Source: a virus | Lineage: Duplodnaviria > Heunggongvirae > Uroviricota > Caudoviricetes | Length of the DNA: 14,361 nt | Virus record (IMG/VR): IMGVR_UViG_2531839662_000017 | Coordinates: 1-14,361 of that record | Strand: one strand, 5' to 3' | Shown: one piece after another, positions 1-14,361 of the stretch | How positions within the stretch are numbered: the stretch's first letter is position 1 | Layout: the number at the start of each line of letters is the position of its first letter | Translations under genes and position numbers: made by a program | Notes under the pieces: model-generated | What the model was told of the DNA's origin: nothing | What the model saw: only the letters and a program-made list of their open reading frames with translations | Databases searched by the model: none

Positions 1-696
1 TCAATCTACTTTTGCAACACTTTGCTTTGAAAATGCCGCCTTTTGTTTTGAACGCGTTCTCATTACAAACAATAAAGCCCCACTATCCAGTCGGTAAAAA
101 ATGTGTTTCATTGCAACCCAGTGACGAGTAAATGTTTTGGACCAGTTTTTAGTTGTCACTCCCGCCAGTAATGCCAGCTCCTGGTATTCATAACCTTCCC
201 CACCAAAAAGTTCTGCTTTTACTGCCTGCGCCGCCAGCCAGATTAATTTTTTCAGGCGTTCCTGCGTTTTCCCTGCAATTTTTCTGGTACCGGATTGAGT
301 ATTAAATTCGTTCCACGCCCACTGTGTTATCGCGATCTGATGCTCCCAGCAAATGTTTCCGCCGTAACACCACAACAACCAGGCTTTATGATGCTCTTCA
401 AGAGACAGCACAGCCCGCCGCCATGATGATGTCGAAAACTCAACCGGGCTGACCAGGGCAATTGATGAGCCTTTCGCCAGTGATTGTTTTCCCGGGATTG
501 GTGGATTATCCCGCGTTATCATTTTTCCAGTCACTTCATCGCGGTACCGGATTTTTTTACGCCTGTAACGCCCTGTATCAAACATGGCATTCTCCTGCCA
601 GGCTTCAAGCTGACCTTTTGTTGCCCCACTCAAATCAGCGGTGGCGATAATGAGCTGCTCGCGCACAAACTGTAAATACTGGTTATTCATGCGCAC
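1..696 (-). CDS. Late-gene antitermination protein Q-like (lambdoid)
   Basis: 231-aa ORF that ends the minus-strand operon directly after rusA, the standard position of Q. Its start region overlaps the rusA stop (ATGA, alternative start at 690), suggesting translational coupling. Stop codon at 1-3, so the gene is complete. Assignment rests on position and size, not a confirmed motif. Confidence 0.55.
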   Translation of the reverse strand: MRMNNQYLQFVREQLIIATADLSGATKGQLEAWQENAMFDTGRYRRKKIRYRDEVTGKMITRDNPPIPGKQSLAKGSSIALVSPVEFSTSSWRRAVLSLEEHHKAWLLWCYGGNICWEHQIAITQWAWNEFNTQSGTRKIAGKTQERLKKLIWLAAQAVKAELFGGEGYEYQELALLAGVTTKNWSKTFTRHWVAMKHIFYRLDSGALLFVMRTRSKQKAAFSKQSVAKVD

Positions 697-1052
697 TCCA
701 ATTCTGTGATTTTTATCCCCAGCCGCCCACCAGGAACGAGCTGACCGCGCACAATATTGATTTCATCAAGCTGCTCGTCGTCTATGAGTAGTCCGGCATG
801 CGTCAGCGCATCCAGTGGTGCTTTCAGGATATTGTCCAGGTCACGACGACGTTTATCCGGTGGCTCTGCAATCACCTTTATCGCCAGCCGTCCGGACAGG
901 TTTAATTTCAGCCGCTGCTGGCGAACAATTAGCGCCACATCACGGCGATAACGCTCACCGGCTTTTGATACAAAATATGTGCTGCCACGACGTCGCCAGT
1001 AGGTGTTCACCGTTGGCGGGTAAGGCAAAACAAATTCTATGCGTTCGGTCAT
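687..1052 (-). CDS. rusA: Holliday junction resolvase RusA
   Basis: 121-aa translation has RusA-family hallmarks (PDKRRRDLDNILKAPLDALTHAGLLIDDEQL; basic N-terminus YWRRRG) and matches RusA length. Sits in the nin region next to Q, as in DLP12-type prophages. Confidence 0.85.
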   Translation of the reverse strand: MTERIEFVLPYPPTVNTYWRRRGSTYFVSKAGERYRRDVALIVRQQRLKLNLSGRLAIKVIAEPPDKRRRDLDNILKAPLDALTHAGLLIDDEQLDEINIVRGQLVPGGRLGIKITELECA

Positions 1053-2108
1053 TTATGCTTTCCACTTCAGGACACCCGAATTTCTCGCGTGCATTAAAAA
1101 ACGAATCAGCAACAACAGCTGGCTGCCGTGTTTTTCTTCAAAATCTTTTACCCCGGTGTGCAGTTCGTTATGACATTTACGGCACAATGGAATAACAAAC
1201 AAATCGTCAGCCTTTGTTCCCATCCCTCCCAGTCCATGACCAATGATGTGATGCGGATCATCTGCCTGATTACCGCACGTCATGCATTTCTGCGTTTTTA
1301 CCCAGCGCGTGTATACAGGCATCTCTTCCCGTTGTGGTTTCTGGCGCTGGAGATACTGAGCCGGTGACTCCGGATCAACGGCAATGCTGACCACTGTCTT
1401 TTCCTGTGGCGGGTTTTGCTGGTGGGCGTGAGGCAGCGGCGCAAGATTTTTTGTGCGCTGCTTCAGTATGCTGGTGGCGGTCTGCTCTCCCGGCACGATG
1501 TCGCTCTCGCGGTATACTGAGCGAATTTTTTCCGCGCGCAATCCCAGCGAACGACGTAATACCGTCTCCGGTAGTGCGTCCGCTACGTTATTTATGGTTG
1601 CCCACCAAGATAATTCAGCCAGCGATAATTCCCGCTCCTGCGTGCCATTCATTGCATGGTGTATGACGTCAATCATCCATGCTGACAGGTTTTGATGAGC
1701 AAGTTGCTCGAGTGATTCGGATGTCTGGTCACGCAGCTGGTTGTCGCAGTGCCAGCACAACACCATTGCGCCGGTACCATAACGGTGAATAACGGTTTCG
1801 CTGTGATGATAATCGCCGTGTGGCCACTGGCAGGATTTAACATGACGCAGGAGCCAGTCAGACAGTGCACCAGCGCCGCCGGCAGCACGAATCACCCGCT
1901 CATCGCTGAAAAATGGCAGCAGAGATTTGTCTTCCGCCAGCGGCTGGCGAACGGCAGGAACGACCCCGGACGGCAGACCGCGCATGCTTTTTGGCTCCGG
2001 TTCAACCAGCACTCTGCCGTTATGGAATACCTGCATGGATTCACGACCTGGCTTAACGATAACCACCCCAAGTTCCGGCACCAGAACAGGTCGAAGTAAT
2101 ACCCGCAC
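1053..2108 (-). CDS. DUF968/YdfU-like phage protein with C-terminal Cys/His (HNH-like) motif
   Basis: 351-aa ORF tightly packed between the rem-like gene and rusA (1-nt and 0-nt gaps). C-terminus carries CMTCGN...HHIIGHG...CRKCHNELH. Size and position resemble YdfU of Qin-type prophages (recalled, not searched). The true start may be internal. Confidence 0.6.
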   Translation of the reverse strand: MRVLLRPVLVPELGVVIVKPGRESMQVFHNGRVLVEPEPKSMRGLPSGVVPAVRQPLAEDKSLLPFFSDERVIRAAGGAGALSDWLLRHVKSCQWPHGDYHHSETVIHRYGTGAMVLCWHCDNQLRDQTSESLEQLAHQNLSAWMIDVIHHAMNGTQERELSLAELSWWATINNVADALPETVLRRSLGLRAEKIRSVYRESDIVPGEQTATSILKQRTKNLAPLPHAHQQNPPQEKTVVSIAVDPESPAQYLQRQKPQREEMPVYTRWVKTQKCMTCGNQADDPHHIIGHGLGGMGTKADDLFVIPLCRKCHNELHTGVKDFEEKHGSQLLLLIRFLMHARNSGVLKWKA

Positions 2109-2109
2109 G

Positions 2110-2382
2110 TTACCTCCAGATGCGTTGCTGGAATGTGCGGGACGGACGCGGTGGGCGTTCGGAATAAGGGAGCCTGACAGAAATTATCCAGTGTCGGAAG
2201 TCAGGGCTGAGGTCTTTCTGAAAGTCGTACCCACGCCTGCGGTAGTTCTGAATCAGCCATTCGGCCTGTTCTTCAGTGCATGGGGCATGCTGGTACCAGT
2301 CATATTTGAATGTATGAGAACGCCGCCCGTGCCAGCTGGCAAGGTCGGTATCAGAATTGTGATGTTTGGTATTGTGCGCCAT
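2110..2382 (-). CDS. Small phage protein, rem-position ORF
   Basis: 90-aa ORF immediately upstream of the DUF968 gene in the same operon, in the position rem occupies in Qin-like prophages. No recognisable catalytic motif. Confidence 0.5.
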   Translation of the reverse strand: MAHNTKHHNSDTDLASWHGRRSHTFKYDWYQHAPCTEEQAEWLIQNYRRRGYDFQKDLSPDFRHWIISVRLPYSERPPRPSRTFQQRIWR

Positions 2383-2455
2383 CGGTTTTCTCTGCTGGCG
2401 CAGCAGGTGCCAGTTGTTCAGGCTAGCCTGTAGATTGTAAACCAGAATACGTAAA

Positions 2456-2480
2456 ACAAAAAACCCGCCGAAGCGGGTTA
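2456..2480 (-). terminator. Intrinsic terminator downstream of the HTH-ImmA gene
   Basis: Minus strand reads ACCCGC-TTCG-GCGGGT followed by TTTTTTGTTTT (6-bp GC stem, tetraloop, U-tract), starting 4 nt after the stop codon at 2484. Confidence 0.7.
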
Positions 2481-2483
2481 TGC

Positions 2484-3605
2484 CTAGTGAATTTTGCCTC
2501 TAAGAGTTCGGTAAGATTGTAGTGAAACAACATCACCACTTCCTGGCAGTTCATGAACCGCAGGAAGATCATCTCCTACTAACTCATAAAAAATGTCCAC
2601 TTCTATATCCATTTCATCAGCTATACGCTGTGGGTCGTATCCTAACTCTTCAAATAAAAACGATAAAGCCCGACGGAATAACTCAGGACGCTCATGAGGG
2701 ATTAGATAATCTTCTTTTTCATCAATAGCTTCCCCTTTCCGTTTCAACCCCATAAATGCAGTTCTGTACTGCTCATCAGTCAAAAGTCCTAATTGATGAG
2801 CCCTGTAAACAATGGCAGCCTTACTTACTTTCCATGTCAACTTAAATTGGCTTAGTCCCTGCCAATTTATCCTCCCCCCCACAGGTCTTGGAAAATATTT
2901 CGCCATCGACGTTCTGGGAAGCAACAGAGCAGAGGCAAAACGGTTTGCCTGGGATTCAGTTAATCTATCCCCAGTAGAAATTCCTTCATGAAGAATCAAA
3001 TGGGCAACCTCATGAGCAATATCAAAGCGTTGCCTACAAGGTGAATTTTTAGCTGTATTTCGAACAATAAAAGGCCTTCGTAGAGGAACAGACAGTGCAT
3101 CTACTTCATCCGAAACGGAGTCAAATGAAGTAACAAACGCCCCAAGTTTCTCGGCAAGGCGAGTCATATTTTCAATTGGGCCAAAGCCTAAGCCCCACTC
3201 AATACGACATTTTTCTGCCGCTCGCTCGATATCTTCTTGTGTATGGACACGAAATTCAGGAAATCGAACAGGTGACAAATTAAGGTTATCTTCAAATACA
3301 TCAATAAAACGACGATAAAACTCAGCCTTAGCGAGTGTTGATAGCTTCGTTGACATCCTTGTCGAGGCGCGTTTACGAAAATGTACAATCTCTTCATTAA
3401 CAGGAGAATGTTCCTGCCCTTCGAAAAAGGCGGGCTTCACGCGCAAAACCTCGGCTAATTTATTTATAAGCTCTGGGGATGGAGTAGCTGAACCAGACTC
3501 CAGTCGCTGTACATACTGGCGTGTTTTTTCAACCTTCTCAGCAACCTGCTCCAGAGATAGCTCGTGATACAGACGAGCAAGTCTTAAATTAGTACCGTTA
3601 AACAC
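2484..3605 (-). CDS. Fusion protein: N-terminal XRE-family HTH plus ImmA/IrrE-type (COG2856) zinc metallopeptidase
   Basis: 373 aa, GTG start preceded by GGGTGA. N-terminal Cro/C1-type HTH (LSLEQVAEKVEKTRQYVQRLESG). HEVAH (HExxH) zinc-binding motif at residues 198-202, encoded at 3000-3014. Second gene of a two-gene operon, 10-nt gap after the upstream ORF. Confidence 0.85.
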   Translation of the reverse strand: MFNGTNLRLARLYHELSLEQVAEKVEKTRQYVQRLESGSATPSPELINKLAEVLRVKPAFFEGQEHSPVNEEIVHFRKRASTRMSTKLSTLAKAEFYRRFIDVFEDNLNLSPVRFPEFRVHTQEDIERAAEKCRIEWGLGFGPIENMTRLAEKLGAFVTSFDSVSDEVDALSVPLRRPFIVRNTAKNSPCRQRFDIAHEVAHLILHEGISTGDRLTESQANRFASALLLPRTSMAKYFPRPVGGRINWQGLSQFKLTWKVSKAAIVYRAHQLGLLTDEQYRTAFMGLKRKGEAIDEKEDYLIPHERPELFRRALSFLFEELGYDPQRIADEMDIEVDIFYELVGDDLPAVHELPGSGDVVSLQSYRTLRGKIH

Positions 3606-3615
3606 ATTTCACCCA

Positions 3616-4209
3616 CTATTTGCTATTTTGTTTCTTTTCCTTCTCAGTCTTAGACGCACTGATAGGTTCTAGTTCGATAGGTACCGGTGCTGGAGGTACA
3701 TCATCGACAGAGTTCAGCATAACAACACGGTCCGCACCATATGTCCAAGTTGACACGATCTCACCAAACACGTTATAGCCATTAAAAATGACTCTACCAC
3801 CCTCGCCTTCAAATTCAGGCTTTTCAACCACAAAGCGATGCATAGTTGGAGTAGTCTCCTCTGACTCAAAGAGTCGATCAGCATCATTTCTTTTGAAAAA
3901 ACCGCGTTTCTTGGGGTTATCTGCGTCATCAGTAAAGAAACGAATAGGGACATTCCCAATTGAAAACGTAAGATCCATGCCAGGATTAAGTAGTCTTAAC
4001 CAGTCATATGTCTTTCGTACGCACATTTGTAGCAACGCCTGCCGCTGACGCCCAAATGTACAACCACCACGAGTGTAATTATCATCATAGGGCGATGACA
4101 ATAACTCATGAGTAATATCCTGTATCCTGAGCAACTCCTCAGCTATAATGGTTAAACGCTCCTCTGTTAACTCAGGAAAGAACTCCCAAGGGAATGGATG
4201 GTTCTGCAT
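3616..4209 (-). CDS. Hypothetical protein, upstream partner of the HTH-ImmA gene
   Basis: ORF track gives 3616..4257 from a TTG. The ATG at 4207-4209 (MQNHPFPWEF...) has a GGAG Shine-Dalgarno 8 nt upstream and is preferred, giving 197 aa. I recognise no family. Codon usage is lower-GC than the phage backbone. Confidence 0.65.
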   Translation of the reverse strand: MQNHPFPWEFFPELTEERLTIIAEELLRIQDITHELLSSPYDDNYTRGGCTFGRQRQALLQMCVRKTYDWLRLLNPGMDLTFSIGNVPIRFFTDDADNPKKRGFFKRNDADRLFESEETTPTMHRFVVEKPEFEGEGGRVIFNGYNVFGEIVSTWTYGADRVVMLNSVDDVPPAPVPIELEPISASKTEKEKKQNSK

Positions 4210-4258
4210 AGACACTTCTCCGCCTAATCCGTGCAAAAAACGACTTTTGTCAACCAAG

Positions 4259-4287
4259 ATATTGGTGCATATTCATAATTTTGTCAA
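4259..4287 (-). promoter_or_regulatory. Candidate sigma70 promoter of the two-gene cassette
   Basis: Minus-strand TTGACA (4287-4282), 17-nt spacer, CAATAT (4264-4259), about 45 nt upstream of the preferred ATG. The -10 is weak. Confidence 0.3.
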
Positions 4288-4290
4288 CCA

Positions 4291-4315
4291 ATAAAAAACC
4301 CGCCGAAGCGGGTTA
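4291..4315 (-). terminator. Intrinsic terminator downstream of the hok remnant (identical copy of the 2456-2480 hairpin)
   Basis: Same ACCCGC-TTCG-GCGGGT plus T-run on the minus strand. The 23 nt at 4293-4315 are identical to 2458-2480. Confidence 0.65.
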
Positions 4316-4382
4316 AGTGCGGGTGCGTTGAGGATGCCTGACACATCAGAGGTGGCGAGGGATTTCTCCCTCGCCTGGTCTC

Positions 4383-4502
4383 TTACTCCTCAGGTTCGTA
4401 AGCTGTGAAGACAGCGACCTCCGTCTGGCCGGTTCGGATTCGTACCTCGCAGAGGTCTTTCCTCGTTATCAGTACCGCAACAATTTCGTATTCATGATTC
4501 AT
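4383..4502 (-). pseudogene. hok-family toxin remnant, 5'-truncated (HokD/RelF-like C-terminus)
   Basis: Minus-strand translation ...IVAVLITRKDLCEVRIRTGQTEVAVFTAYEPEE* matches the conserved Hok C-terminal half. Only 39 codons are in frame from an ATG (MNHEYE...), an in-frame TGA lies just upstream, and the hydrophobic N-terminal helix is missing. Homology ends where the AT-rich DNA begins (about 4480). A perfect 9-bp hairpin at 4354-4375 lies in the 3' UTR. Confidence 0.55.
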
Positions 4503-4659
4503 TTCATCTAAAACAGTTCATAAACCTAAATAAATTCAAAAAATCACAACACAAATAAATATAAATTATCTCATCCTGAAGAACGATAGGATTATTTAGA
4601 ATTAATAACAATTAATGTAACAATAATTATCAATCCAGATTATTCAAATAAAATGTCAT

Positions 4660-5706
4660 TTACCATATGGAGTTGTGAATGAACTTTAATTCATTTTTTA
4701 TTTTGTTAACAGATAAATTCACGGATGTCCTAACTCTATTCACAGTCATTGCATCTCCTGGATTTAACAACTCTAATGGTTTAGACTTAGCACTTGACAT
4801 TCTGCCACTACCCAGAAAATCATCAAGAATCACAATGTGATTATTAGGATCATCTGTTGTAAAATTACTAATATTTTGTCGAATTACCTCTCTTACAGCT
4901 TCGATGTACATTTTTGTCTGTTGATTTGGTTTATTCCTTGCTCCTGCCACTGTTGACCATCCGCAATGGGTAATAACCACCATCTGAATTTTTGGTGTAT
5001 GGCCATCAGACGGCATTATCTTTCTAAATTCTGATGTTGGTTTAGTCAGAGTATCAATAAGTAATCTTAATGAATTAATCGATTGCTGATCTGTCCTCAC
5101 TGGAACTATTAAAGCATCTGTTGCATGCCAAGATAAATGCGTCGCTCCAGAGAAAAAAGGTGATGTATCAATTAACGCTTTTGTAGTACCAGTTTCAACC
5201 ATTTCTCTGGCTATTTCTTTCTTCAGAGAAAAAAGAATTGTATCAATAACAACCTGCTGAGTAGCCCCAGAAATTGTTCTGGCTTGAGCCAGAGCATTCG
5301 CCATTTGCGTAGGTAGAAGATAAAGTTGACTATCAGATTGAATAAAATAGTTATTCTTGCCCGCAAACCAAGCATTAGTTGATGATACTAGCTTTGCAGC
5401 ACGCGTTGCAAATCCAAGCCCTGGAACAAAATAAGGCATTAAGAGGTCATTTGCAGTTGTGCTAGACGAAGATGCATAATTATTGTCAAAAAAATATGAT
5501 AAATTTCCTTGCGGGCACGTATCCACGATTAATGCGTTATCCGCCAAATATGACAGATTAAAAGTTAAAGATGTCTTACCAATGCCTCCCCGTAAATTAC
5601 ATACTGTATATTTATCATATTTCGGCAAATTAAGACTTCTTACATTACCGTCAGCAACTTCGAATTGACGCTCTATCAGAGCATTAACATTTGATTCACT
5701 AGTCAT
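4660..5706 (-). CDS. ParA/MinD/BcsQ-like P-loop ATPase (deviant Walker A), AT-rich accessory gene
   Basis: 348 aa with VCNLRGGIGKTSLTFNLSY (Walker A of KGGxGK[ST] type, with R replacing the signature K as in BcsQ) followed by IVDTCPQGNL (ParA-type D-x-PQ-N). The gene and its flanks are markedly AT-rich compared with neighbouring phage genes. Confidence 0.7.
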   Translation of the reverse strand: MTSESNVNALIERQFEVADGNVRSLNLPKYDKYTVCNLRGGIGKTSLTFNLSYLADNALIVDTCPQGNLSYFFDNNYASSSSTTANDLLMPYFVPGLGFATRAAKLVSSTNAWFAGKNNYFIQSDSQLYLLPTQMANALAQARTISGATQQVVIDTILFSLKKEIAREMVETGTTKALIDTSPFFSGATHLSWHATDALIVPVRTDQQSINSLRLLIDTLTKPTSEFRKIMPSDGHTPKIQMVVITHCGWSTVAGARNKPNQQTKMYIEAVREVIRQNISNFTTDDPNNHIVILDDFLGSGRMSSAKSKPLELLNPGDAMTVNRVRTSVNLSVNKIKNELKFIHNSIW

Positions 5707-5736
5707 ATCGCCACCATTAGTTTTACACTTTTATTG

Positions 5737-5765
5737 ATGATATGGAAAACTAACCTAGTTGTCAA
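5737..5765 (-). promoter_or_regulatory. Near-consensus sigma70 promoter for the ParA-like gene
   Basis: Minus-strand TTGACA (5765-5760), 17-nt spacer, TATCAT (5742-5737), about 30 nt upstream of the ATG at 5706. Confidence 0.5.
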
Positions 5766-5913
5766 CAATGGATTAAAAAACAAACACACAAGCGTTTATC
5801 AAAAGCACCTTGATTGGTGATACTACCGTGTCTTTCAGCCAAACAGTTCAGTATGTAAAGCGAATCCAACATCAATTAAGAACGTTTTCAGCGCTCCCCC
5901 AGTTGTCTAGATG

Positions 5914-6091
5914 TCAAACTTCATGCGCTCTCCTGTCGAAATAAACGTACTGATTAATCATGCCCAAGGACATTTCGCGTTTTACAGCGATATCACGGCG
6001 GGGAACTCCACACTGATGAAGCTTCCGCACTAGCTCAATATCGCTTTGCGGATGTTTTTTTGATTGGTTATAACCCCCCCCCTCTTAACAT
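5914..6091 (-). pseudogene. Small HTH ORF (weakly NinH-like), split by a frameshift at a G9/C9 homopolymer
   Basis: Minus strand reads ATG-MLRGGG into the G9 run and hits a stop. Removing one G gives a 58-aa ORF MLRGGGYNQSKKHPQSDIELVRKLHQCGVPRRDIAVKREMSLGMINQYVYFDRRAHEV* with an HTH-like core. The NinH resemblance is weak and from memory. Confidence 0.35.
6074..6082. repeat. C9 (minus-strand G9) homopolymer tract
   Basis: Nine consecutive C residues counted directly in the sequence, lying inside the frameshifted small ORF. Confidence 0.9.
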
Positions 6092-6192
6092 CCTATTGAT
6101 ACCCAGTTCCTGCGCTTTCGCTCTGACAGCATAACTAGAACGATCAATCAACCCTCCTATGCTTTCGACCGTCAACGCGTCTACACAATTGC

Positions 6193-6648
6193 CTAAGCGC
6201 CATGATTTCCCTCATGCACAACCTGTTCACCGAATGTCTCTCGAAAACCATTCTGGTAAAATGCCAGTACACGCTGCATAGCTTCGCTCTTCCGGCACTC
6301 GCGACAGATTATATTCAGGCGCCTATCGTAGCGACGCATTTCTCCGTCTGGTAATGACCAGATAAGGTCCGGATCAACCACAGATGGTTTCTTCAGATTT
6401 GCCCTTGAGAGTTTTTTGCGGGCGTTTTGCCAGTCCTTACGAGCCTGTTCAGACGGGAATAACCCGTAGCCAGAGTTATATACATCGCCACTGGCAACCA
6501 GCTCTCTGGCGATAACACTCATCAGATATCTTGTCGCACCAGTTTTCGCTTCCAGTTGCCGTAACGTCTCGCGCCCGCTCTGGCGTACCAGCTCAACAAC
6601 CTGCCCTTTAATTTTTTCTCGCTCTTCCTGTGTAAATACTTTTGCCAT
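6193..6648 (-). CDS. Hypothetical nin-region phage protein
   Basis: The ORF track extends to 6714, but the ATG at 6646-6648 (MAKVFTQEE...) has a GGGAGG Shine-Dalgarno and removes the overlap with the upstream gene, giving 151 aa. No family recognised. Confidence 0.55.
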   Translation of the reverse strand: MAKVFTQEEREKIKGQVVELVRQSGRETLRQLEAKTGATRYLMSVIARELVASGDVYNSGYGLFPSEQARKDWQNARKKLSRANLKKPSVVDPDLIWSLPDGEMRRYDRRLNIICRECRKSEAMQRVLAFYQNGFRETFGEQVVHEGNHGA

Positions 6649-6664
6649 AAGCCCTCCCCAGGAA

Positions 6665-7435
6665 TCACTTTTCCGGCACAATACGACTGGAGGAATCGAC
6701 AATCTGTCGGACAATATCCCGGTGCTTGTTCAGCTCCCGCAGCGCGGCGCAAACTCGCTCCCACTTCTGGGCATGACTTTTCGCCCGGCGCAGTTCGCGG
6801 TTTGCCATATGCAGCGATGGTAAAATCAGGCCATCAGCTCGTGTTTCAGTGAACGATGGCAGCGACTGCACAATGTCCGCCACAGTTTCTGTTTTAATAT
6901 CTTCCTGTGTTGCAGCTTCCTGTACTGGTAACGCAACACTTGCTGGCTGAGGAAAGGCTTTACCATCAGTTTCCGCTACCAATGCAGCTTTCGGCTCTGC
7001 TGGTAAATTATCGCCCGGTATGCAGTAGCGAAATTTACCGTTCTGGTTTACGCGTGCCAGCCGCCCCGTTGCGGTTACTACCGCCAGCGTGGAAGCAACC
7101 TTGCGAGTGCTGACACCGAACTTACCCGCCAGTTCCTCACACGTTTTAGCTCCCTCCTGACCGATAAACTCAATCATCATGTCAGCGGTAACTTTTCGTT
7201 CGACCTCCCTGGTTAGCACATCCTGTACTTCAGATTGTGCTGGCTGCTCTTCGGCTACCCCTGATTCACCTTCGCCAGCCACACGCCAGGTGTATACGCT
7301 TTTATCAACGAAGCCAGCCTTTTTCAGTTCCCACAGCTCGTTCAGTACTTCTTCACGACTGATATCAAGTCGCGCAGCCAGCTCTACCGACGTGGCTTTT
7401 CCCATCGCTTTCAGTGCGTCAAAAACGGTCTCCAT
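6665..7435 (-). CDS. Hypothetical phage protein with N-terminal winged-helix-like region
   Basis: The ORF track start at 7486 overlaps the DnaC-like gene. The ATG at 7433-7435 ([13 protein letters not shown]...) has a GGAGG Shine-Dalgarno 8 nt upstream, giving 256 aa. The N-terminus has a helix-turn-helix-like pattern ([28 protein letters not shown]). Confidence 0.6.
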
Positions 7436-7457
7436 TAAAATTTCCTCCCGGTAAAAA

Positions 7458-8204
7458 TTACTTCTCAATACCTGGCTGACCAACATTCGGGCGCCAGCTC
7501 TCCCAGTTAAAATTCACCCAGCGCCCGCCGTTCATGGTCATGCGATCCATAATCCGCTCGCCGAGCAATGTTTTCATGGCCTCATAGTTCAGGTTTGTCA
7601 GCATCCCCACGCTGCGCATCGACGCTGTCCGGCGATCAACAATCTGGTGCAGTACCACCTGCTCGTTTTTCGTCTCGCGCTGAATACCAATTTCATCAAG
7701 AACCAGCAGATCCACTTCGCACAGTTCCCGCAAAAATTTTTCGCCTGATTGCCCGTCGTCATAGCTGGCGTGTAGAGCACTCATGACATCAGCCACGGTA
7801 ACCACAATCACTGTCTGGCCATCTTTCAGCAGGCGATTCCCGATAGCCGCCGCTAAGTGGTTTTTCCCGGTACCAGGTTTTCCGCTGAATGCGAAATTTG
7901 TGCATCCGGTCATCAGTTCATCGGCGATGGATTTCGCCTGGCTCAACGCGTATCGCTGGCCGTCATTCTGCACCTGGTAATTCGCAAACGAGCACTTGCG
8001 GTGCAACGGCTGGATGCCGGAGCGATTCAGAATTTTTTCCACCCGCAACTGACGATTCTGGCGGTTGATCTCCTCGCAACGCTTCTGGCCTTCTGCAAGT
8101 TGCCACTCGCGCCACTCGTCCACTGTTCGGTATGGCGCGGTTACATGCTGCGGAGCCAGCTTACGGATGCGTTCAAGAACACCGCCTGTCGCAATATTTT
8201 TCAT
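7458..8204 (-). CDS. DnaC-like replicative helicase loader (IstB-type AAA+ ATPase)
   Basis: 248 aa with Walker [16 protein letters not shown] and Walker B LLVLDEIG. Follows the O-like gene by 6 nt with a GGGGG Shine-Dalgarno. Confidence 0.85.
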
Positions 8205-8210
8205 GCTTCG

Positions 8211-9158
8211 TTACCCCCTGAATCCCGGCGGAATTTCGGTGTCCGGTTCAGAAATGTGATTCACGCAACGCTGTACAGGCGAACGCCCCAGACGAATAAC
8301 CAGCTCATCCCATTTTTCGCGAAGCTTTGACGGGCTCATGACGTTTTTTACCCAGAATGGATCCCGCTGTACCCGACCAAACATTTCGCAAATTTGTCTG
8401 TGAGTTCTGCCATCCAGCATCCGCATTGTGCGCACATCATTGGCCCATGCAGTCCAGTTGGGTTCTTTCGGTCGCATGATTTCGCCATCATCGCTGGCAG
8501 CCTGCTCGTAAAGACTCACGATTCGTCCCCAGATCCACTGCGCACACGCTAAATCCTCCTGGCTGCCCCACTGGCGTTTTTTCGCACTGAACACAACCGC
8601 GTCAGGGTGTCGGGTTAAAAAATCCTGTTCAGCCGTCTGCGGGTCCGGTTGCGAAGCGTCCGGACGAAAAGATCTTTTATCTGACGGATCAGGTTTTAAT
8701 ACTGACGGATCGGGGCCAACCATCGCCCCCCTATCCGACTGTTTTTTATCAATGGTTGATCCATCAAAATTTGAGGGGTCAACCGTTGAGGGGGCAATAT
8801 TTGACGGGTCATTTTTTGCCTGGCTAATTTTTCTTTTCGGTTTATATGCCTCACGCGCCGCCGCTGCTGCTGCTTCGAGTTTTTCCACATTAAGGCGGTA
8901 GATATTGCTTTCATTACGCCCACCGACCTTACGTTCCTCCTTCTTCAGCCAGCCGTTCTTTTCCAGTTCCGCTATCGCCGCTTTAACCGTTGATTCACTC
9001 TTTGCTCCAATCTGACGACGAATGGTCTCCACTGCAGGCCATGACACACCTTCGTCATTGCTGTAATCTGCAAGGCGAGCCATTACTGCCACCCTGGATA
9101 AGATCATGCCGGTGAAGGCACACCCTTCCCAGACAAGACCATGAAGCTTGCTGCTCAT
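8211..9158 (-). CDS. Replication initiator, lambda O-like (origin-binding protein)
   Basis: 315-aa ORF just upstream of the DnaC-like gene. The DNA encoding its central low-complexity linker (DPSN/DPSV/DPSD repeats) contains iterons, as in lambda O. Confidence 0.7.
   Translation of the reverse strand: MSSKLHGLVWEGCAFTGMILSRVAVMARLADYSNDEGVSWPAVETIRRQIGAKSESTVKAAIAELEKNGWLKKEERKVGGRNESNIYRLNVEKLEAAAAAAREAYKPKRKISQAKNDPSNIAPSTVDPSNFDGSTIDKKQSDRGAMVGPDPSVLKPDPSDKRSFRPDASQPDPQTAEQDFLTRHPDAVVFSAKKRQWGSQEDLACAQWIWGRIVSLYEQAASDDGEIMRPKEPNWTAWANDVRTMRMLDGRTHRQICEMFGRVQRDPFWVKNVMSPSKLREKWDELVIRLGRSPVQRCVNHISEPDTEIPPGFRG
8681..8848. repeat. Putative phage replication origin: iterons plus AT-rich segment inside the O-like gene
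   Basis: Five copies of a 10-bp motif yTGAsGGrTC at 8681, 8702, 8771, 8786 and 8801 (the last three exactly 15 bp apart), clustered GATC sites, and an adjacent T-rich stretch at 8811-8848. Confidence 0.5.
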
Positions 9159-9181
9159 AAAAAACTCCGAACACCGTGCTT

Positions 9182-9607
9182 TTAGTGCATCACCACGGCA
9201 TTTCCCGCCGGACCACCACGATTCATCTGATTGAAACCAGCGATCGCCACTGCGACAAAATCATCAGCGTCTCTCACCAGTCGTTCCCGCATCTCCACCA
9301 GCTCCCGAAAATAGGCTGAACTGTGGCTGCGCATTCGGGCCACCAGCAGAGGTGGCATTGCCTTTTCGATCGCCGGTAACAGCGCCTGAATTTTTTTAAC
9401 CGCATCAGGGGTGTCTTTCTCCACCCAGCGGAAAATTTTCTGAGTATTGCGAGCCAGGGCTTCCGGATGCCTGTCGTCATATAGCTCTGGGAACGTCATA
9501 CCAAGCTCAAAATAAGCCCGGGTTATTTCAGCTGCTGGAACTTTTTCGCCATCAGGACGCGCCCAGGCATTCATCGCCATGCGGATGTGTTCATGCTTGA
9601 TTTTCAT
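9182..9607 (-). CDS. ydaT: YdaT-like protein (CII-position regulator)
   Basis: 141 aa beginning MKIKHEHI. Overlaps the upstream Cro-like gene by ATGA (9604-9607) and sits between cro-like and O-like genes, the lambda cII position. The name is from recalled Rac/CP-933P annotation. Confidence 0.55.
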   Translation of the reverse strand: MKIKHEHIRMAMNAWARPDGEKVPAAEITRAYFELGMTFPELYDDRHPEALARNTQKIFRWVEKDTPDAVKKIQALLPAIEKAMPPLLVARMRSHSSAYFRELVEMRERLVRDADDFVAVAIAGFNQMNRGGPAGNAVVMH

Positions 9608-9906
9608 GAATCAACTCCATCAGATAAGCATGCACTACAATCACCTTCAGCATGAACTACATGTGTTTGCCCCAAACGAATGCCGCTCGCATACTCAGGC
9701 CAAATAAGCTCCCAATCATGGGGTCGTAGCTCCGCCCTACTTACTTGGCCTTCCGTCGCAGATTCGATCATAAGGGCGCGGGTTGGAGATATAGCTGCTC
9801 GTCCAGACGCCATTTGCGATAAGTAAGATGGCGATACACCAAGTCTGGCCGCGAATTTCTTAGCATCACCAACCCTCAATGATTTAATAAACTCTTTTAA
9901 TGTCAT
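9604..9906 (-). CDS. ydaS: Cro-like HTH regulator (YdaS-like)
   Basis: 100 aa with HTH KKFAARLGVSPSYLSQMASGRAAISPTRALMIES. Divergent from the repressor gene across an operator-bearing intergenic region. Confidence 0.65.
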   Translation of the reverse strand: MTLKEFIKSLRVGDAKKFAARLGVSPSYLSQMASGRAAISPTRALMIESATEGQVSRAELRPHDWELIWPEYASGIRLGQTHVVHAEGDCSACLSDGVDS

Positions 9907-9916
9907 ACCTTCCTCG

Positions 9917-9997
9917 GTTTAGTGTTTTTTTGCGAGTTTAGTGTTTAATAAACCATTAAGTCAAGTATTTGCTTGTTTAGTGATTACTAAAGATAAT
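9917..9997. promoter_or_regulatory. Right operator/promoter region: three direct repeats GTTTAGTG(T/A)T plus divergent promoters
   Basis: Repeats at 9917-9926, 9936-9945 and 9975-9984. Candidate repressor promoter TTGCTT (9969-9974), 17 nt, GATAAT (9992-9997), placing the transcript start near the ATG at 10004 (leaderless, like lambda PRM). Candidate cro-like promoter on the minus strand: TTGACT (9964-9959) with -10 TAAACT. Confidence 0.45.
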
Positions 9998-10003
9998 TAC
10001 CAC

Positions 10004-10375
10004 ATGCAAAAAAAAGAAATTCGCCGTTTACGTCTCAAGGAGTGGTTTAAAGATAAAACTCTGCCACCCAAAGAGAAGAGCTACCTATCTCAACTAATGA
10101 GTGGGAGGGCCTCGTTTGGAGAAAAGGCTGCCAGAAGAATAGAGCAAACATACGGGATGCCGGAAGGGTATCTGGATGCGGAATACGCAGAACAACCGGA
10201 AGTTTCTCCACCACATGCAGGGTTAACGTCTAATCAACTGGAATTATTGCAGATTTTTTCAGCCTTCCCTGAGGATGAGCAACGCCAGATAATCAGCGAG
10301 TTAAAGCAGAAAAAAGAATCAATGGAAGATCTCATAGCGAGATGGATTGCGGCGCAAAAATGCCGCCGCGCCTGA
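10004..10375 (+). CDS. paaR: CI-like prophage repressor (PaaR-like HTH regulator), no S24 peptidase domain
   Basis: ATG at 10004 preferred over the GTG at 9941, which would read through the operator repeats. 123 aa with HTH KEKSYLSQLMSGRASFGEKAARRIEQ. First gene of a three-gene operon with the ParE-family toxin-antitoxin pair. Confidence 0.65.
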   Translation: MQKKEIRRLRLKEWFKDKTLPPKEKSYLSQLMSGRASFGEKAARRIEQTYGMPEGYLDAEYAEQPEVSPPHAGLTSNQLELLQIFSAFPEDEQRQIISELKQKKESMEDLIARWIAAQKCRRA

Positions 10376-10395
10376 GTTATAAAACCGGAGGAAAC

Positions 10396-10587
10396 ATGAA
10401 TAGAGCCCTTTCACCAATGGTTTCTGAATTTGAAACCATTGAACAAGAAAACAGTTACAACGAATGGCTGCGTGCGAAAGTAGCAACGAGCCTTGCAGAT
10501 CCGCGCCCAGCAATTCCCCATGACGAAGTTGAGCGCAGAATGGCAGAACGCTTTGCTAAAATGCGCAAGGAACGGAGCAAGCAGTAA
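10396..10587 (+). CDS. paaA: Small antitoxin partnered with ParE toxin (PaaA-like)
   Basis: 63 aa (MNRALSPMVSEFETIEQ...) with a GGAGG Shine-Dalgarno. Stop at 10585-10587 lies 1 nt before the toxin ATG. I recall this as the PaaA antitoxin of the paaR-paaA-parE systems in O157:H7 prophages. Confidence 0.65.
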   Translation: MNRALSPMVSEFETIEQENSYNEWLRAKVATSLADPRPAIPHDEVERRMAERFAKMRKERSKQ

Positions 10588-10588
10588 A

Positions 10589-10867
10589 ATGTTACCCGTG
10601 TTATGGCTTGAAAGCGCAGATACCGACCTAGATGATATAACTAGCTATATTGCTCGTTTCGACATAGATGCGGCTGAACGCTTATGGCAGCGATTAAGGG
10701 GTTGTGTGCTGCCGTTATCCGAACATCCGTATTTATACCCACCAAGCGACAGAGTACCTGGCTTGCGTGAGATTGTAGCCCACCCTAACTATATAATTCT
10801 ATACCGCGTAACAACATCAAGCGTTGAAGTAGTAAACGTGATCCACGCAAGACGCCAGTTTCCCTAA
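10589..10867 (+). CDS. parE: ParE/RelE-family toxin
   Basis: 92 aa with a ParE-like C-terminus (HPNYIILYRV...VEVVNVIHARRQFP), translationally coupled to the antitoxin. Confidence 0.8.
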   Translation: MLPVLWLESADTDLDDITSYIARFDIDAAERLWQRLRGCVLPLSEHPYLYPPSDRVPGLREIVAHPNYIILYRVTTSSVEVVNVIHARRQFP

Positions 10868-10928
10868 CTTTCACTACCAATAGAAACATAACAACCGCAA
10901 CGACTTTATCAAAAGCGTTGTGTTTGTT

Positions 10929-10970
10929 ACGCCCCGTGGTTTAGTTTTTACTTGACTTAAGTTTAATGTT
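10929..10970 (+). promoter_or_regulatory. pL-like promoter with two operator-like repeats
   Basis: GTTTAGTTTT (10929-10938) and GTTTAATGTT (10951-10960) each differ by one base from the right-operator repeat. They flank TTGACT (10942-10947), about 16 nt, TAAACT (10964-10969), a near copy of the cro-like promoter. Confidence 0.4.
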
Positions 10971-11077
10971 TATTAAACTAAAAATACCAACCCACCCCGC
11001 CCCACAGAATGCAGGGCAATACTTCGAGTTACCAGGCAGTGGTCAGGGGTTAAGTAGCCAGCCCGAGGCGTAAGAAC

Positions 11078-12943
11078 ATGACGGCAGGGTTCAACTTTAA
11101 TAACTATGCAGCAGGTTTTTGTTCCGCTACCCCGGCGTTAAGGGGAAATGAGGTCAGCATGGATACTATCGATCTTGGCAACAACGAATCTCTGGTATGC
11201 GGCGTGTTCCCCAACCAGGACGGTACGTTCACCGCGATGACATATACCAAAAGCAAAACGTTTAAAACCGAATCTGGCGCGCGTTGCTGGTTAGCCAGAA
11301 ACAATGAAGTTATCGACAAAGATCGCGAAGACTGGAAGCGCATTTCCGCATCAATGCGCAAACAACCCGATGCCGTCCGCTACGACCGTCAGACTATTTT
11401 TGGCCTTGTCCGTGAGCGTCCGATCGACATTCACAAAGATCCCGTAGCACTGAACAAATACATCACTGAATACCTGGCGACAAAGGGCGTGTTTGAGGAT
11501 GAAGAAACAGACCAGAACGCTGCTGATATTCTCCAGCCGTCAGCAGCACAAACTGATGCAGTGGAAACTGAAGTATCTGATACCCAAAAAAATGAAAGCA
11601 CGCTGGAAACTGAACCATCTGTAGAGCGTGAGGGGCCGTTCTACTTCCTTTTCACCGATAAGGATGGCGAAAAATATGGTCGTGCAAACAAACTTTCTGG
11701 TCTGAATAAGGCGCTGGCTGCAGGGGCTACTGAAATCACGAAAGAAGAATATTTTGCCCGCAAAAACGGTACATACTCAGGCTCACAACAAAATACTGGT
11801 GCATCTGACACGACCGCACAACCAGAGCCGGTAAAAGTTACCGCTGACGAAGTAAACAAAATTATGCAGGCAGCCAATATCAGCCAGCCTGACGCTAATG
11901 AACTGCTTGCTGCCTCTCGCGGAGAATTTGTTGCAGGGATTAGCGACCCGAATGATCCGAAATGGGTGAAGGGGATTGAAACCCGCGATTCTGTGAACCA
12001 GAACCAGCAAGAAACGGAACAGAACGACCAGAAAGCGGAACAAAACAGCCCAAATGCGTTACAAAACGAGCCGGAAACAAAACAACCTGAGCCAGTAGCG
12101 CAACAGGAAGCGGAAAAAGTCTGCACCGCCTGCGGTCAGAGCGGTGGCGGCAACTGCCCTGATTGTGGCGCGGTGATGGGCGACGCAACATACCAGGAAA
12201 CATTCGATGAAGAGAATCAGGTTGAAGTTCAGGAAAACGATCCGGAGAAAATGGAAGGCGCTGAACATCCACACAAGGAGAATGCTGGCAGCGCTCAGGA
12301 CCACGCCAGCGATAATGAAACTGGCGAGGCGGCAGATCACTCAATTAAGATGAACGGTCATCACGAAATCACATCCACCAGCAGGACGTGTGACCATCTA
12401 ATGATCGACCTCGAAACCATGGGAAAAAATCCTGATGCCCCGGTTATCTCAATAGGTGCAATATTTTTCGATCCGCAAACCGGAGATATGGGACCGGAAT
12501 TTAGTAAGACTATCGATCTGGAAACTGCTGGCGGAGTCATTGATCGGAACACCATTAAATGGTGGCTGAAGCAATCACGCGAAGCGCAATCTGCCATTAT
12601 GACCGATGAAATCCCGTTAGATGATGCACTGTTACAATTGCGAGAATTTATCGACGAAAACTCCGGTGAATTTTTTGTTCAGGTCTGGGGAAATGGAGCC
12701 AACTTCGACAACACGATTTTGCGCCGTTCATACGAACGGCAGGGGATCCCCTGCCCGTGGCGTTACTACAACGATCGCGATGTACGCACAATCGTTGAGC
12801 TGGGGAAAGCCATAGACTTCGATGCCAGAACGGCTATTCCATTCGAAGGTGAGCGCCATAATGCACTTGATGACGCTCGTTACCAGGCAAAATACGTTTC
12901 AGCTATCTGGCAAAAACTGATCCCGAGTCAGGCTGATTTTTAA
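11078..12943 (+). CDS. Multidomain protein with C-terminal DnaQ-like (DEDDh) 3'-5' exonuclease domain
   Basis: 621 aa. C-terminal third carries Exo motifs MIDLETMG (D-x-E), [11 protein letters not shown] and HNALDDARY. Preceded by a Cys4 zinc-ribbon ([16 protein letters not shown]) and an acidic Q/E-rich low-complexity linker. The start could instead be Met28 at 11159. Confidence 0.75.
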
Positions 12944-13004
12944 TGTTCAACCGTCGCCAGTTGTCGTTGGTATTCTGCAACTGGCGCGTTCCGGAGTGAT
13001 AGCC

Positions 13005-13274
13005 ATGAGCGAACAGTACCTGATAACGCTCGATGAGTGGAAGCCAAAACGGTTCAGTCTCCCAATAACAAACACTACCCTGGTGAAATACGGAAAACTA
13101 GGATACATCGTTCCAAGACCACAAAAAATTCGTGGGCGTTGGCTGATAGATCGCCGAGCAGTATTTGTTGGACCTGGTGAAACAGGAATTGCGCCGGAAA
13201 TTCATACTGGCGATGATGATGCACTGAAGGAGATTTTAACTCATGTCACCGAGGCCACGAAAAAACAGCACTGA
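13005..13274 (+). CDS. xis: Excisionase (Xis-like)
   Basis: ATG at 13005 with GGAG 8 nt upstream (ORF track starts at a GTG at 12996). 89 aa, small and basic. Overlaps the integrase start by 32 nt, as lambda xis/int do. Confidence 0.6.
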   Translation: MSEQYLITLDEWKPKRFSLPITNTTLVKYGKLGYIVPRPQKIRGRWLIDRRAVFVGPGETGIAPEIHTGDDDALKEILTHVTEATKKQH

Positions 13275-14361
13275 CGTAGCCGGACTTTACGAAAAATTTG
13301 ATCGCAGAACTGGCAGAGTTTACTACCAGTATAAAAACCCTGTGACTGGAAAATTTCACGGGCTCGGAACAGACAAAGGTAAGGCAGAAAAAATCGCTTC
13401 CACAGCCAATCAGCGAATAGCTGCAGCAGAGGCTGAATATTTCATGCGCAAAATTGATGAAAGTCCGTCAGCAACAACGCGTCGGGGTATCAGATTAAAG
13501 GCATGGGTTGATCGATATCTGAAAATACAGGACACGCGACTGAAAAATGGAGATATTGCAGCTACAACTCACAAAGAAAAAGCCAGAATGGCTGCATACC
13601 TGGTTTCCCGTCTGGGAAACCACCCATTGAAAGAACTGGAAGTAAGAGACTTTGCATTAATACTGGATGAGTGGCTGGATAAAGACATGGTCAGCACAGC
13701 GAGAGTAAATCGTGGATTATGGGTTGATATTTATAAAGAAGCACAGCATGCAGGGGAAGTTCCTCCTGGATGGAATCCTCCGGAGGCCACCCGTAAACCG
13801 ATCCCTAAAGTAACCAGAGCCAGACTCACCCTGGAAGACTGGCAAAAAATTTACAACGCAACGCCAGAAAAACACTTTATCCGTAACGCAATGCTTCTTG
13901 CGATTGTTACTGGTCAGCGCCGTGATGACATTTACCACATGCGTTTTTCAGATGTGTGGAACGAACATTTGCATATCACCCAGGGAAAAACCGGAATGCG
14001 TCTGGCGTTACCGCTTACACTACGCTGTGATGCCATTGGGATAACGTTAAAAGAAGTTATTGATGGGTGCCGAGACAGAATATTAAGTCCATATCTAATC
14101 CATAGTCGGCACCAGAAACAACCGAAGCCGATGAGTAAAGACAACCTGAGCGACTACTTTGCCAAAGCACGGGATCTGGCTGGGATAATTCCACCAGCAG
14201 GAAAAACTCCGCCAACATTTCATGAACAACGCTCTCTATCAGAACGGCTGTACCGTGCACAGGGTATCGATACAAAAACATTACTAGGACATAAAGTCCA
14301 GGCAACCACCGATCGCTATAACGATACTCGAGGTCAGGAATGGGTTAAGTTGGTTATTTGA
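13243..14361 (+). CDS. int: Tyrosine site-specific recombinase (phage integrase)
   Basis: 372 aa with an arm-binding type N-terminus and a C-terminal catalytic region (...LLGHKVQATTDRYNDTRG..., candidate Tyr nucleophile in DRY). Stop codon is the last three bases of the window, so the attachment site probably lies just beyond. Confidence 0.9.
   Translation: MSPRPRKNSTDVAGLYEKFDRRTGRVYYQYKNPVTGKFHGLGTDKGKAEKIASTANQRIAAAEAEYFMRKIDESPSATTRRGIRLKAWVDRYLKIQDTRLKNGDIAATTHKEKARMAAYLVSRLGNHPLKELEVRDFALILDEWLDKDMVSTARVNRGLWVDIYKEAQHAGEVPPGWNPPEATRKPIPKVTRARLTLEDWQKIYNATPEKHFIRNAMLLAIVTGQRRDDIYHMRFSDVWNEHLHITQGKTGMRLALPLTLRCDAIGITLKEVIDGCRDRILSPYLIHSRHQKQPKPMSKDNLSDYFAKARDLAGIIPPAGKTPPTFHEQRSLSERLYRAQGIDTKTLLGHKVQATTDRYNDTRGQEWVKLVI

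Follow-up and report, generated by a model that had tools for sequence, protein, structure and literature searches.

The closest described relative of the locus considered here is the immunity region of the cryptic lambdoid prophage known as CP-933P in Escherichia coli O157:H7 EDL933 and as Sp12 in strain Sakai, arranged as ydaT-ydaS/paaR2-paaA2-parE2 and followed by the promoter PL933P (Hallez 2010; Jurenas 2021, PMC8630535; Prolic-Kalinsek 2023, PMC9986795). As cited in later work, Hallez 2010 originally described paaR2-paaA2-parE2 as a three-component toxin–antitoxin operon, a view that was later revised by the authors (PMC8630535). The locus in question spans positions 9917-10970 of the record IMGVR_UViG_2531839662_000017 from a virus of the Caudoviricetes; the whole stretch of DNA analysed, 14,361 nucleotides long, is referred to as the window. 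It contains a repressor gene, paaR, with a toxin–antitoxin pair, paaA-parE, behind it and a divergent cro-like gene, ydaS, next to it. This locus is a near-identical copy of the CP-933P immunity switch (PaaR2, YdaS, PaaA2-ParE2), which is already known, and nothing essential in it is new.

In the published system, 5' RACE (rapid amplification of cDNA ends) places the start of the PRM933P transcript at the paaR2 start codon, and the N-terminal protein sequence MQKKE confirms translation from a leaderless mRNA, as for lambda cI (PMC8630535). PaaR2 and YdaS both shift a 97-bp fragment in electrophoretic mobility shift assays (EMSA), and their DNase I footprints, of about 78 bp for PaaR2 and about 65 bp for YdaS, overlap and cover PR and PRM (PMC8630535). 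The right operator region (OR) was described as four equally spaced 18-bp inverted repeats (IR) with the half-site consensus GTTTAGTAA; IR1, over PRM, and IR3, over PR, are well conserved and the other two have one good half, while three pseudosymmetric 'operators' are also described (PMC8630535). After parE2, PL933P has the -35 and -10 hexamers of PR, with three operators in the left operator region (OL), and it is repressed about 100-fold by PaaR2 and by YdaS (PMC8630535). Low PaaR2 activates PRM and represses PR, PaaR2 also represses its own promoter, and YdaS represses PR, PRM and PL; the preference of each protein for the individual operators is published in outline only (PMC8630535). The locus is bistable and its toxin–antitoxin pair stabilises plasmids, PaaA2 has no DNA-binding motif, and PaaR2 is without a peptidase motif and shows no response to mitomycin C (PMC8630535). 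YdaT was not toxic in the tests made and activates PRE (PMC8630535); its operator motif, TTGATTN6AATCAA, and the position of this motif have been published together with its structure, a POU-type DNA-binding tetramer, and the same paper likens the place of the toxin–antitoxin pair to the rexAB slot of lambda (PMC9986795). The hypothesis that the pair was inserted is contained in the discussion of PMC8630535.

In the window, PaaA and ParE match the crystallised proteins of E. coli O157:H7, PaaA2 and ParE2, with 100% identity (PDB 3zbe, 5cw7), and the 97-bp OR region (9907-10003) aligns with O157:H7 with 0 differences. When the primers of Table S3 of Jurenas et al. 2021 are placed on the window, 26 of 31 match exactly, including the EMSA primers FL1 and FL2 and all those defining the EMSA (9907-10003), PRM/PR (9931-10004), PL (10868-10985) and PRE (9579-9698) fragments; mismatches are confined to ydaS, ydaT and the region beyond PL. 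The O157:H7 chromosome used for comparison matches all eight EDL933 primers that were checked, including the five that are mismatched or unmapped in the window. Over 1545 nt (9604-11148) it differs from the window at 16 positions, with four differences in paaR, two in ydaS, one each in paaA and parE (both silent), and four just upstream of PL, which are single-nucleotide polymorphisms (SNPs) at 10930, 10932, 10937 and 10939. At the protein level, two of 123 residues are changed in PaaR (E66G, V67G), one in YdaS (A37T) and 22 of 141 in YdaT. The earlier note, made from the letters of this DNA alone, had likened the locus to the published paaR-paaA-parE system of O157:H7 cryptic prophages and judged it probably not novel, which is correct; the EMSA, footprinting, 5' RACE and reporter fusions that it proposed are already published, on DNA that is identical in OR and nearly identical in OL (PMC8630535).

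The cassette is common. A prophage remnant beside potC in the porcine enterotoxigenic E. coli strain UMNF18 matches the entire window at 99.9% identity, the record of Escherichia phage Evi contains the cassette at 98.7% identity, and at least 80% of the stretch 9500-11100 is present in 583 of 5426 complete E. coli genomes, about a tenth. Nucleotide identity to O157 is 82% in ydaT (76 differences) versus about 99% from ydaS through PL, which constitutes a sharp mosaic boundary. Within flanks that have diverged, the switch and its toxin–antitoxin pair move as one conserved block. The ydaT gene is frameshifted in the UMNF18 annotation and intact in the window.

The repressor gene paaR (10004..10375, + strand) encodes a CI-like protein of 123 residues (PHROG transcriptional regulator, 1.6e-39), identical over residues 1-65 to PDB 7nkv/8c3k. 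An N-terminal helix-turn-helix (HTH) DNA-binding domain is evident from the match to PDB 7nkv, entitled 'Phage repressor protein CI', and from the alignment with the HTH_3 region of YdaS, while residues 70-119 resemble the C-terminus of DicA (E 9e-7). A literature search for a publication on the PaaR2 N-domain entries PDB 7nkv/8c3k/8c3l found none. No match to PaaR is obtained in a Pfam search (E<=0.01), hence no S24 peptidase domain, and the same search does find S24 in five relatives. PaaR thus works like CI without being a member of the S24 family. The absence of this domain had been noticed before, and the exclusion of the standard RecA-cleavage route that was drawn from it agrees with the published behaviour towards mitomycin C. 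In addition, a LexA-box scan (CTGT-N8-ACAG, at most one mismatch) finds none near the switch and only two weak matches at 2764 and 2803; there is therefore no sign of direct SOS control at the switch.

Behind paaR, on the same strand, follow paaA (10396..10587), encoding an antitoxin of 63 residues, and parE (10589..10867), encoding a toxin of 92 residues, separated by gaps of 20 nt (paaR-paaA) and 1 nt (paaA-parE). The earlier note had placed a co-transcribed ParE toxin–antitoxin pair in the slot of rexAB, an analogy that is also published (PMC9986795). PaaA matches Pfam PaaA2 (1e-19), its residues 2-63 are identical to PDB 3zbe and it is 100% identical to 5cw7; PaaA2 is the only match in the Pfam search, with no DNA-binding domain. 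ParE matches ParE_toxin (1.9e-16) and is identical to PDB 5cw7_B at 92 of 92 residues. PADLOC has no model for PaaR, PaaA or ParE.

On the other side of OR, ydaS (9604..9906, - strand) encodes a Cro-like regulator of 100 residues with Pfam matches to YdaS_toxin, HTH_3 and P22_Cro. This small HTH protein, which scores 46.2 bits against PF15943 (cut-off 30), is divergent from the repressor and is the first gene of the rightward operon. It is followed by ydaT (9182..9607, - strand), which encodes a CII-like activator of 141 residues (Pfam YdaT_toxin, E 9.5e-10; PHROG 'CII-like transcriptional activator', 3.8e-46; PDB 3c4r/8bt1). The Pfam name YdaT_toxin is a misnomer, and the 'toxin' in the names of both families is historical. 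The YdaT operator motif TTGATTN6AATCAA has a single match in the window, versus 0.09 expected; this operator, OM (TTGATTTTCATGAATCAA, 9597..9614), falls where ydaS and ydaT meet, within the PRE fragment of the published work.

The N-terminal regions of PaaR and YdaS align by BLASTP (E 8e-05), PaaR reading KSYLSQLMSGRAS where YdaS reads PSYLSQMASGRAA. The earlier note had seen the shared SYLSQ motif as a sign that the two proteins compete for the same sites. Such competition is in line with the alignment and with the overlapping binding on published DNA (PMC8630535), but the SYLSQ..G pattern is in part generic to HTH proteins of the XRE type, and a third HTH_3 protein of the window (2484-3605) reads RQYVQRLESGSA at the equivalent place.

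The operators were first noticed as a repeated 10-mer, GTTTAGTGWT (= GTTTAGTG(T/A)T), with three exact copies between the divergent genes, at 9917-9926, 9936-9945 and 9975-9984, and two copies with one mismatch at 10939-10948 (GTTTAGTTTT) and 10961-10970 (GTTTAATGTT). All five are found again, and a search of the 14,361-base window for GTTTAGTGWT with at most one mismatch gives no match beyond them. The raw count by itself is unremarkable, with 1.61 matches expected from whole-window shuffles against the five observed; it is the clustering in two short intergenic stretches that is above chance. In the 97-bp repressor/cro intergenic region three matches compare with a mean of 0.09, and 0 of 2000 dinucleotide shuffles reached three; in 10868-11077 two matches compare with a mean of 0.05, and again 0 of 2000 shuffles reached two.

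The earlier note had taken the 10-mer for a direct repeat. The sequence matches stand and their nature does not: at four of the five copies the 10-mer is the left, better-conserved half of an 18-bp palindrome, GTTTAGT-N4-ACTAAAC, and the copy at 9917 is a lone half-site whose right half does not fit the consensus. A true direct repeat for a head-to-tail binder is rejected, because an inverted half-site lies 4 bp away at four of the five copies and because the palindrome is the unit conserved in other genera. When each window position is scored against the published 18-bp consensus (GTTTAGTAA/TTACTAAAC), the palindromes at 9936-9953, 9975-9992, 10939-10956 and 10961-10978 fit at 14-16 of 18 positions. 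These four are the only ones in the window at the cut-off of at least 14/18, versus 0.058 expected per shuffled window, and 0 of 1000 shuffles reached four.

Numbering of the OR operators on window coordinates is our own assignment, based on the text of PMC8630535. IR4 would be the half-site repeat at 9917..9934 (exact GTTTAGTGTT) in the ydaS 5' untranslated region, in a stretch not conserved in other genera. IR3 is assigned to the palindrome GTTTAGTGTTTAATAAAC at 9936..9953 (15/18), which overlaps the PR -10 hexamer, and IR1 to the palindrome GTTTAGTGATTACTAAAG at 9975..9992 (16/18), which fills the PRM spacer; both are conserved across genera, IR3 in 16 of them. Between them, a weak operator at 9955..9972, read from the sequence with one conserved half (6/9), overlaps the -35 hexamers of both PR and PRM and is assigned to IR2. 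The resulting start-to-start spacing of 19/19/20 bp is consistent with the 'four equally spaced' inverted repeats of PMC8630535. In OL, the palindrome GTTTAGTTTTTACTTGAC at 10939..10956 overlaps the PL -35 and the palindrome GTTTAATGTTTATTAAAC at 10961..10978 overlaps the PL -10, each with 14/18 matches to the consensus; a third OL palindrome, sought at a distance of 22 bp on either side of these two, is not convincingly present. Base 10939, the first of the OL half-site and one of the four SNPs clustered at 10930-10939, is G here (GTTTAGT) versus A in O157:H7 (ATTTAGT), and the OL palindrome is thus better in this allele.

The promoters are laid out around these sites. PR, for ydaS-ydaT (9935..9964, - strand), was found by the promoter scan with a -35 TTGACT at 9964-9959, an 18-nt spacer and a -10 TAAACT at 9940-9935, and it is RACE-confirmed on identical sequence (PMC8630535). 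PRM (9969..9997, + strand) was read from the sequence, with a -35 TTGCTT at 9969-9974, a 17-nt spacer and a -10 GATAAT at 9992-9997. The scan of the window missed PRM because its -35 fits at only three of six positions, which fits a published promoter that is weak and activatable. The PRM start is placed at the A of the paaR ATG (10004), 6 nt from the -10; the leaderless repressor mRNA predicted at about this position was shown by RACE and N-terminal sequencing on identical sequence (PMC8630535), and the conservation of the 6-nt distance in other genera fits such a start. PL (10952..10979, + strand), also found by the scan, has a -35 TTGACT at 10952-10957, a 16-nt spacer and a -10 TAAACT at 10974-10979, and points toward the DUF1391-exonuclease, xis and int genes. 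It is an inverted copy of PR, with the same TTGACT/TAAACT hexamers and a perfect 12-nt inverted repeat (TTAAGTCAAGTA/TACTTGACTTAA) linking 9956-9967 and 10949-10960. A second promoter resembling that of the cro-like gene had been proposed at 10942-10969; the promoter exists, but these coordinates are about 10 bp too far left, and the end of the reported finding at 10970 cuts the -10 hexamer. The OR/OL-like arrangement proposed with it is confirmed by palindromes at both promoters and by PL933P with its OL operators in the published system (PMC8630535).

This layout, with 9936-9953 over the PR -10, 9975-9992 exactly between the PRM -35 and -10, and the OL pair over the PL -35 and -10, explains the published behaviour: RNA polymerase is kept off PR and PL when their operators are bound, and a protein bound in the PRM spacer turns the repressor gene off. 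An inverted repeat at 10889..10929 (+ strand), after the parE stop and before PL, folds as RNA into a stable hairpin (-19.2 kcal/mol, z -3.5) that may form the 3' end or terminator of the repressor operon; the terminator scan did not call it, as no T-run follows directly. The hairpin is identical in O157 and is not mentioned in the text examined on this system. An Rfam scan of the whole window gives no RNA family at gathering score.

Taken together, the locus is almost certainly the immunity region carried by an E. coli cryptic lambdoid prophage of the CP-933P/Sp12 type, a bistable PaaR/YdaS switch with paaA-parE as cargo. PaaR would be the equivalent of CI, translated from a leaderless PRM transcript that starts at 10004, and the divergently encoded YdaS would be the equivalent of Cro, competing with PaaR for the overlapping 18-bp palindromes in the 97-bp OR. 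Mutual repression would make the pair a bistable switch, which would also act on the OL operators about 1 kb away, over the PL promoter expected to drive the exonuclease, xis and int genes. YdaT, as the equivalent of CII, would bind at 9597-9614 and activate PRE, resulting in more paaR transcription. Transcribed with paaR in the slot of lambda rexAB, paaA-parE would serve as an addiction module that stabilises the region. Control of the toxin–antitoxin pair falls to the prophage repressor, because the antitoxin has no DNA-binding domain, and the switch does not respond to SOS, because PaaR is without an S24 autopeptidase domain. Published experiments on DNA that is the same or almost the same demonstrate binding, promoters, the leaderless start, repression of PL, bistability and addiction, while we infer OR-OL looping by octameric PaaR, the assignment of single operators to single proteins and the role of the hairpin after parE.

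Several points weigh against this view, as caveats rather than contradictions. Two strong OL palindromes are found here versus three published OL operators, and the placement of IR1-4 and OL1-3 rests on text. The published PL activity is that of the EDL933 allele, from which the present one departs by the four SNPs upstream of PL and by different downstream genes, and the YdaT that was studied is not the same as this one at 22 of 141 residues. None of these contradicts the explanation as a CP-933P-type switch.

Relatives outside E. coli place the switch in a broader context. A PaaR scan of species-representative genomes gives 27 loci at 44-76% identity, in Xenorhabdus, Photorhabdus, Yersinia, Arsenophonus, Morganella, Raoultella, Enterobacter, Erwinia, Mycoavidus, Massilia and others. 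A divergent YdaS homologue is present at 22 of the 27, many of them with YdaT as well, and none of these 27 loci of other genera has PaaA or ParE within 3 kb of the PaaR homologue. Conservation in 16 genera extends to the two strong OR palindromes, the PR -35, the PRM -35 (TTGCTT), the PRM -10 and the spacing of 6 nt between this -10 and the ATG; neither the stretch holding the 9917 copy nor the bases flanking the palindromes are conserved. Another palindrome of this kind is found at 18 of the 27 loci, 0.1-1.8 kb downstream of the repressor gene; it corresponds to an OL whose distance varies, as does the cargo that separates it from the repressor. The PaaR homologues have an invariant KEKSYLSQL and their YdaS partners an invariant S(Y/F)LSQ(M/L), which supports the idea that both proteins read the same sites.

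Five of these relatives, with 209-222 residues, have a Peptidase_S24 domain (E 1e-17 to 1e-29) behind a PaaR-type N-domain, which the short forms are without. They come from two Yersinia species, Acerihabitans, Mycoavidus and the locus L025, and belong to a set of six loci (L018, L019, L022, L025, L027 and L028; repressor at about 3001-3660) of which five have S24 by Pfam and L019 lies outside the scan. The existence of both forms suggests a swap of the C-terminal domain within one immunity group. Among the open reading frames (ORFs) between repressor and OL in other genera, one Arc/ribbon-helix-helix-like and one DUF4236 protein are the only informative Pfam matches; for this reason, a general occupancy of the slot by toxin–antitoxin or defence genes cannot be claimed. 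In Xenorhabdus and Photorhabdus (L004-L011, L016, L017) a GGAG-type ribosome-binding site serves the repressor gene, whose distance from the PRM-like -10 is greater by about 50 nt, so that the leaderless arrangement is not universal in the family. At one of these loci, in Xenorhabdus khoisanae (L016, 2727-2944), a 21-bp tandem array of 10.4 copies (consensus GTTATGTGTACGGTAAATAGT) is located between the conserved OR operators and the paaR homologue and lengthens the intergenic region to 404 bp.

These relatives also bear on other explanations of the locus. In the best surviving of these, itself very unlikely, PaaR is a dedicated third part of the toxin–antitoxin operon, a split-off DNA-binding module of the antitoxin, and the repeats are its own autoregulatory operator without a role in immunity. 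This corresponds to the original description by Hallez 2010, as later cited, and both the missing DNA-binding domain of PaaA and the repression by PaaR of its own promoter agree with it. Yet the homologues in other genera are near paaA or parE at 0 of 27 loci while 22 keep a divergent YdaS and the operators, the same operators control PL and with it the exonuclease, xis and int genes, and the same DNA-binding domain is found in relatives that are phage repressors of the classical HTH+S24 kind; the authors themselves have revised the description.

It is most improbable that ydaS-ydaT is itself a toxin–antitoxin pair and that the locus consists of two back-to-back systems without a switch. The Pfam family names YdaS_toxin and YdaT_toxin point this way, as does a weak similarity of YdaS to the HigA antitoxin (E 1.3e-5, below the curated cut-off), but YdaT is not toxic and activates PRE, YdaS binds the operators and represses PR, PRM and PL (PMC8630535), the YdaT structure is that of a DNA-binding tetramer of the POU type (PMC9986795), and the PHROG labels read 'transcriptional repressor' and 'CII-like activator'. 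Equally remote is the explanation of the repeats as a by-product of AT-rich promoter DNA and promoter duplication without specific protein binding, for although OR has only 31% GC and the half-site contains the -10 hexamer TAAACT, so that copying a promoter copies one repeat, no composition-matched local shuffle came up to the observed counts, 16 genera keep both the sequence and the position of the palindromes but not the bases that flank them, and the DNase I footprints of both proteins cover the repeats on identical DNA (PMC8630535).

For the immunity switch itself, the comparison across genera indicates an old system whose repressor occurs in SOS-cleavable and SOS-blind versions, with paaA-parE apparently added as cargo in the E. 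coli lineage. The pair looks like cargo added to an older switch because none of the 27 loci of other genera carries it. A wider proposal is tentative, and we consider it somewhat short of probable: the PaaR N-domain, YdaS and the GTTTAGT-N4-ACTAAAC operator may define one immunity-specificity group across Enterobacterales and some Burkholderiales, in which an S24 autopeptidase (SOS-inducible) and a DicA-like oligomerisation domain (SOS-blind, bistable) would have been exchanged for each other at the repressor C-terminus, and the slot between repressor and OL would hold interchangeable cargo, paaA-parE being one late acquisition. If this is true, cross-immunity would be expected between prophages of distant genera, with a single DNA-binding code behind two induction logics. 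This comparative point was not found in the literature examined on this system, and it may have been published elsewhere.

The remainder of the window belongs to the same prophage. Positions 1-14361 correspond to 503-14862 of the locus L002 and extend from a Q antiterminator gene to the integrase, in a prophage beside potC; in UMNF18, a tRNA-Ile and then a DUF4942 gene follow beyond Q. This arrangement points to a prophage remnant of about 14 kb that has neither lysis nor structural genes. Downstream of PL, an ORF of 621 residues (11078-12943, + strand) joins a DUF1391 domain (29-75) to an Rv2179c-like 3'-5' exonuclease domain (440-611) through a long acidic, Q-rich linker; UMNF18 annotates this stretch as two pseudogene fragments. 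Further left, a two-gene module at 2484-4257 (- strand) encodes a 373-residue protein with HTH_3 and Peptidase_M78 (ImmA/IrrE) domains (PADLOC RmrA, E 4e-201) and, upstream, a protein of about 197-213 residues that matches RmrT (E 7e-93) and has no Pfam match. To judge by these matches, the module looks like candidate anti-phage or toxin–antitoxin cargo; the region 2481-4294 of the window has no match in the O157 CP-933P counterpart. A Hok/Gef remnant at 4295-4477 shares 97% identity with the hokD region in the prophage of O157, and its matching stretch in UMNF18 is annotated as a truncated Hok/Gef pseudogene; Rfam finds no sok-type RNA there. At 4660-5706 (- strand) lies a lone gene for a ParA/MinD-like ATPase of 348 residues (AAA_31), with no obvious partner gene and absent from the O157 counterpart.

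The biological weight of the locus is small, since the system is on record for an almost identical allele, with its operators and promoters, its leaderless start and its lack of an S24 domain, and the cassette is common. Its value is that of a calibration point, as an OR/OL switch with an embedded toxin–antitoxin pair was rebuilt correctly from raw sequence. What is mildly new is comparative only, namely the cross-genus conservation of the operators, the S24 relatives and the absence of the toxin–antitoxin pair from other genera, and it supports the published idea of an insertion.

Among known systems, CP-933P/Sp12 shares with the window the gene order and orientation, the 97-bp OR, the promoters PR, PRM, PL and PRE, and OM. 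The two changed PaaR positions (E66G, V67G) are linker residues, and one of the four SNPs near PL restores the G of the half-site in the window. About 2.5 kb between PL and the exonuclease in O157 CP-933P (ydfC, dicB, DUF1482 and others) are absent from the window, which has extra cargo further left (RmrTA and the ParA-like gene). The likeness to lambda is one of design: the overall layout, a leaderless repressor mRNA, competition of repressor and Cro at two operator sites flanking the repressor operon, cargo co-transcribed behind the repressor, and a CII-type activator acting on a promoter antisense to cro. Unlike in lambda, the operators are 18-bp palindromes at 19-20 bp start to start, of which OR has four, a distance of about 1 kb separates OR from OL, a toxin–antitoxin pair replaces rexAB, the repressor is without S24, and no sequence similarity to CI, Cro or CII is detectable.

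DicA of Qin and RacR/YdaS/YdaT of Rac are likewise small HTH repressors that occupy the position of cI and have no autopeptidase, with partners of the YdaS/YdaT type; their N-terminal DNA-binding domains and operators differ from those of the window, the similarity to the DicA family model falls far short of the family cut-off (28.8 versus 101 bits), and YdaS and YdaT of Rac are only 26% and 31% identical (PMC8630535). The HTH+S24 repressors of the CI type in Yersinia, Acerihabitans, Mycoavidus and L025 have in common with the locus an N-domain (46-76% identical) that includes KEKSYLSQL, the OR palindromes, a divergent YdaS partner and a downstream OL palindrome; they differ in their S24 C-terminal domain, which presumably makes them RecA-inducible, and in having no paaA-parE. 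With canonical parDE, finally, the cargo has in common a toxin of the ParE fold (PF05016; PDB 3kxe and 6x0a as distant matches) and a small, labile antitoxin encoded just upstream, whereas PaaA is without the ribbon-helix-helix DNA-binding domain and transcription is under the control of a separate phage repressor.

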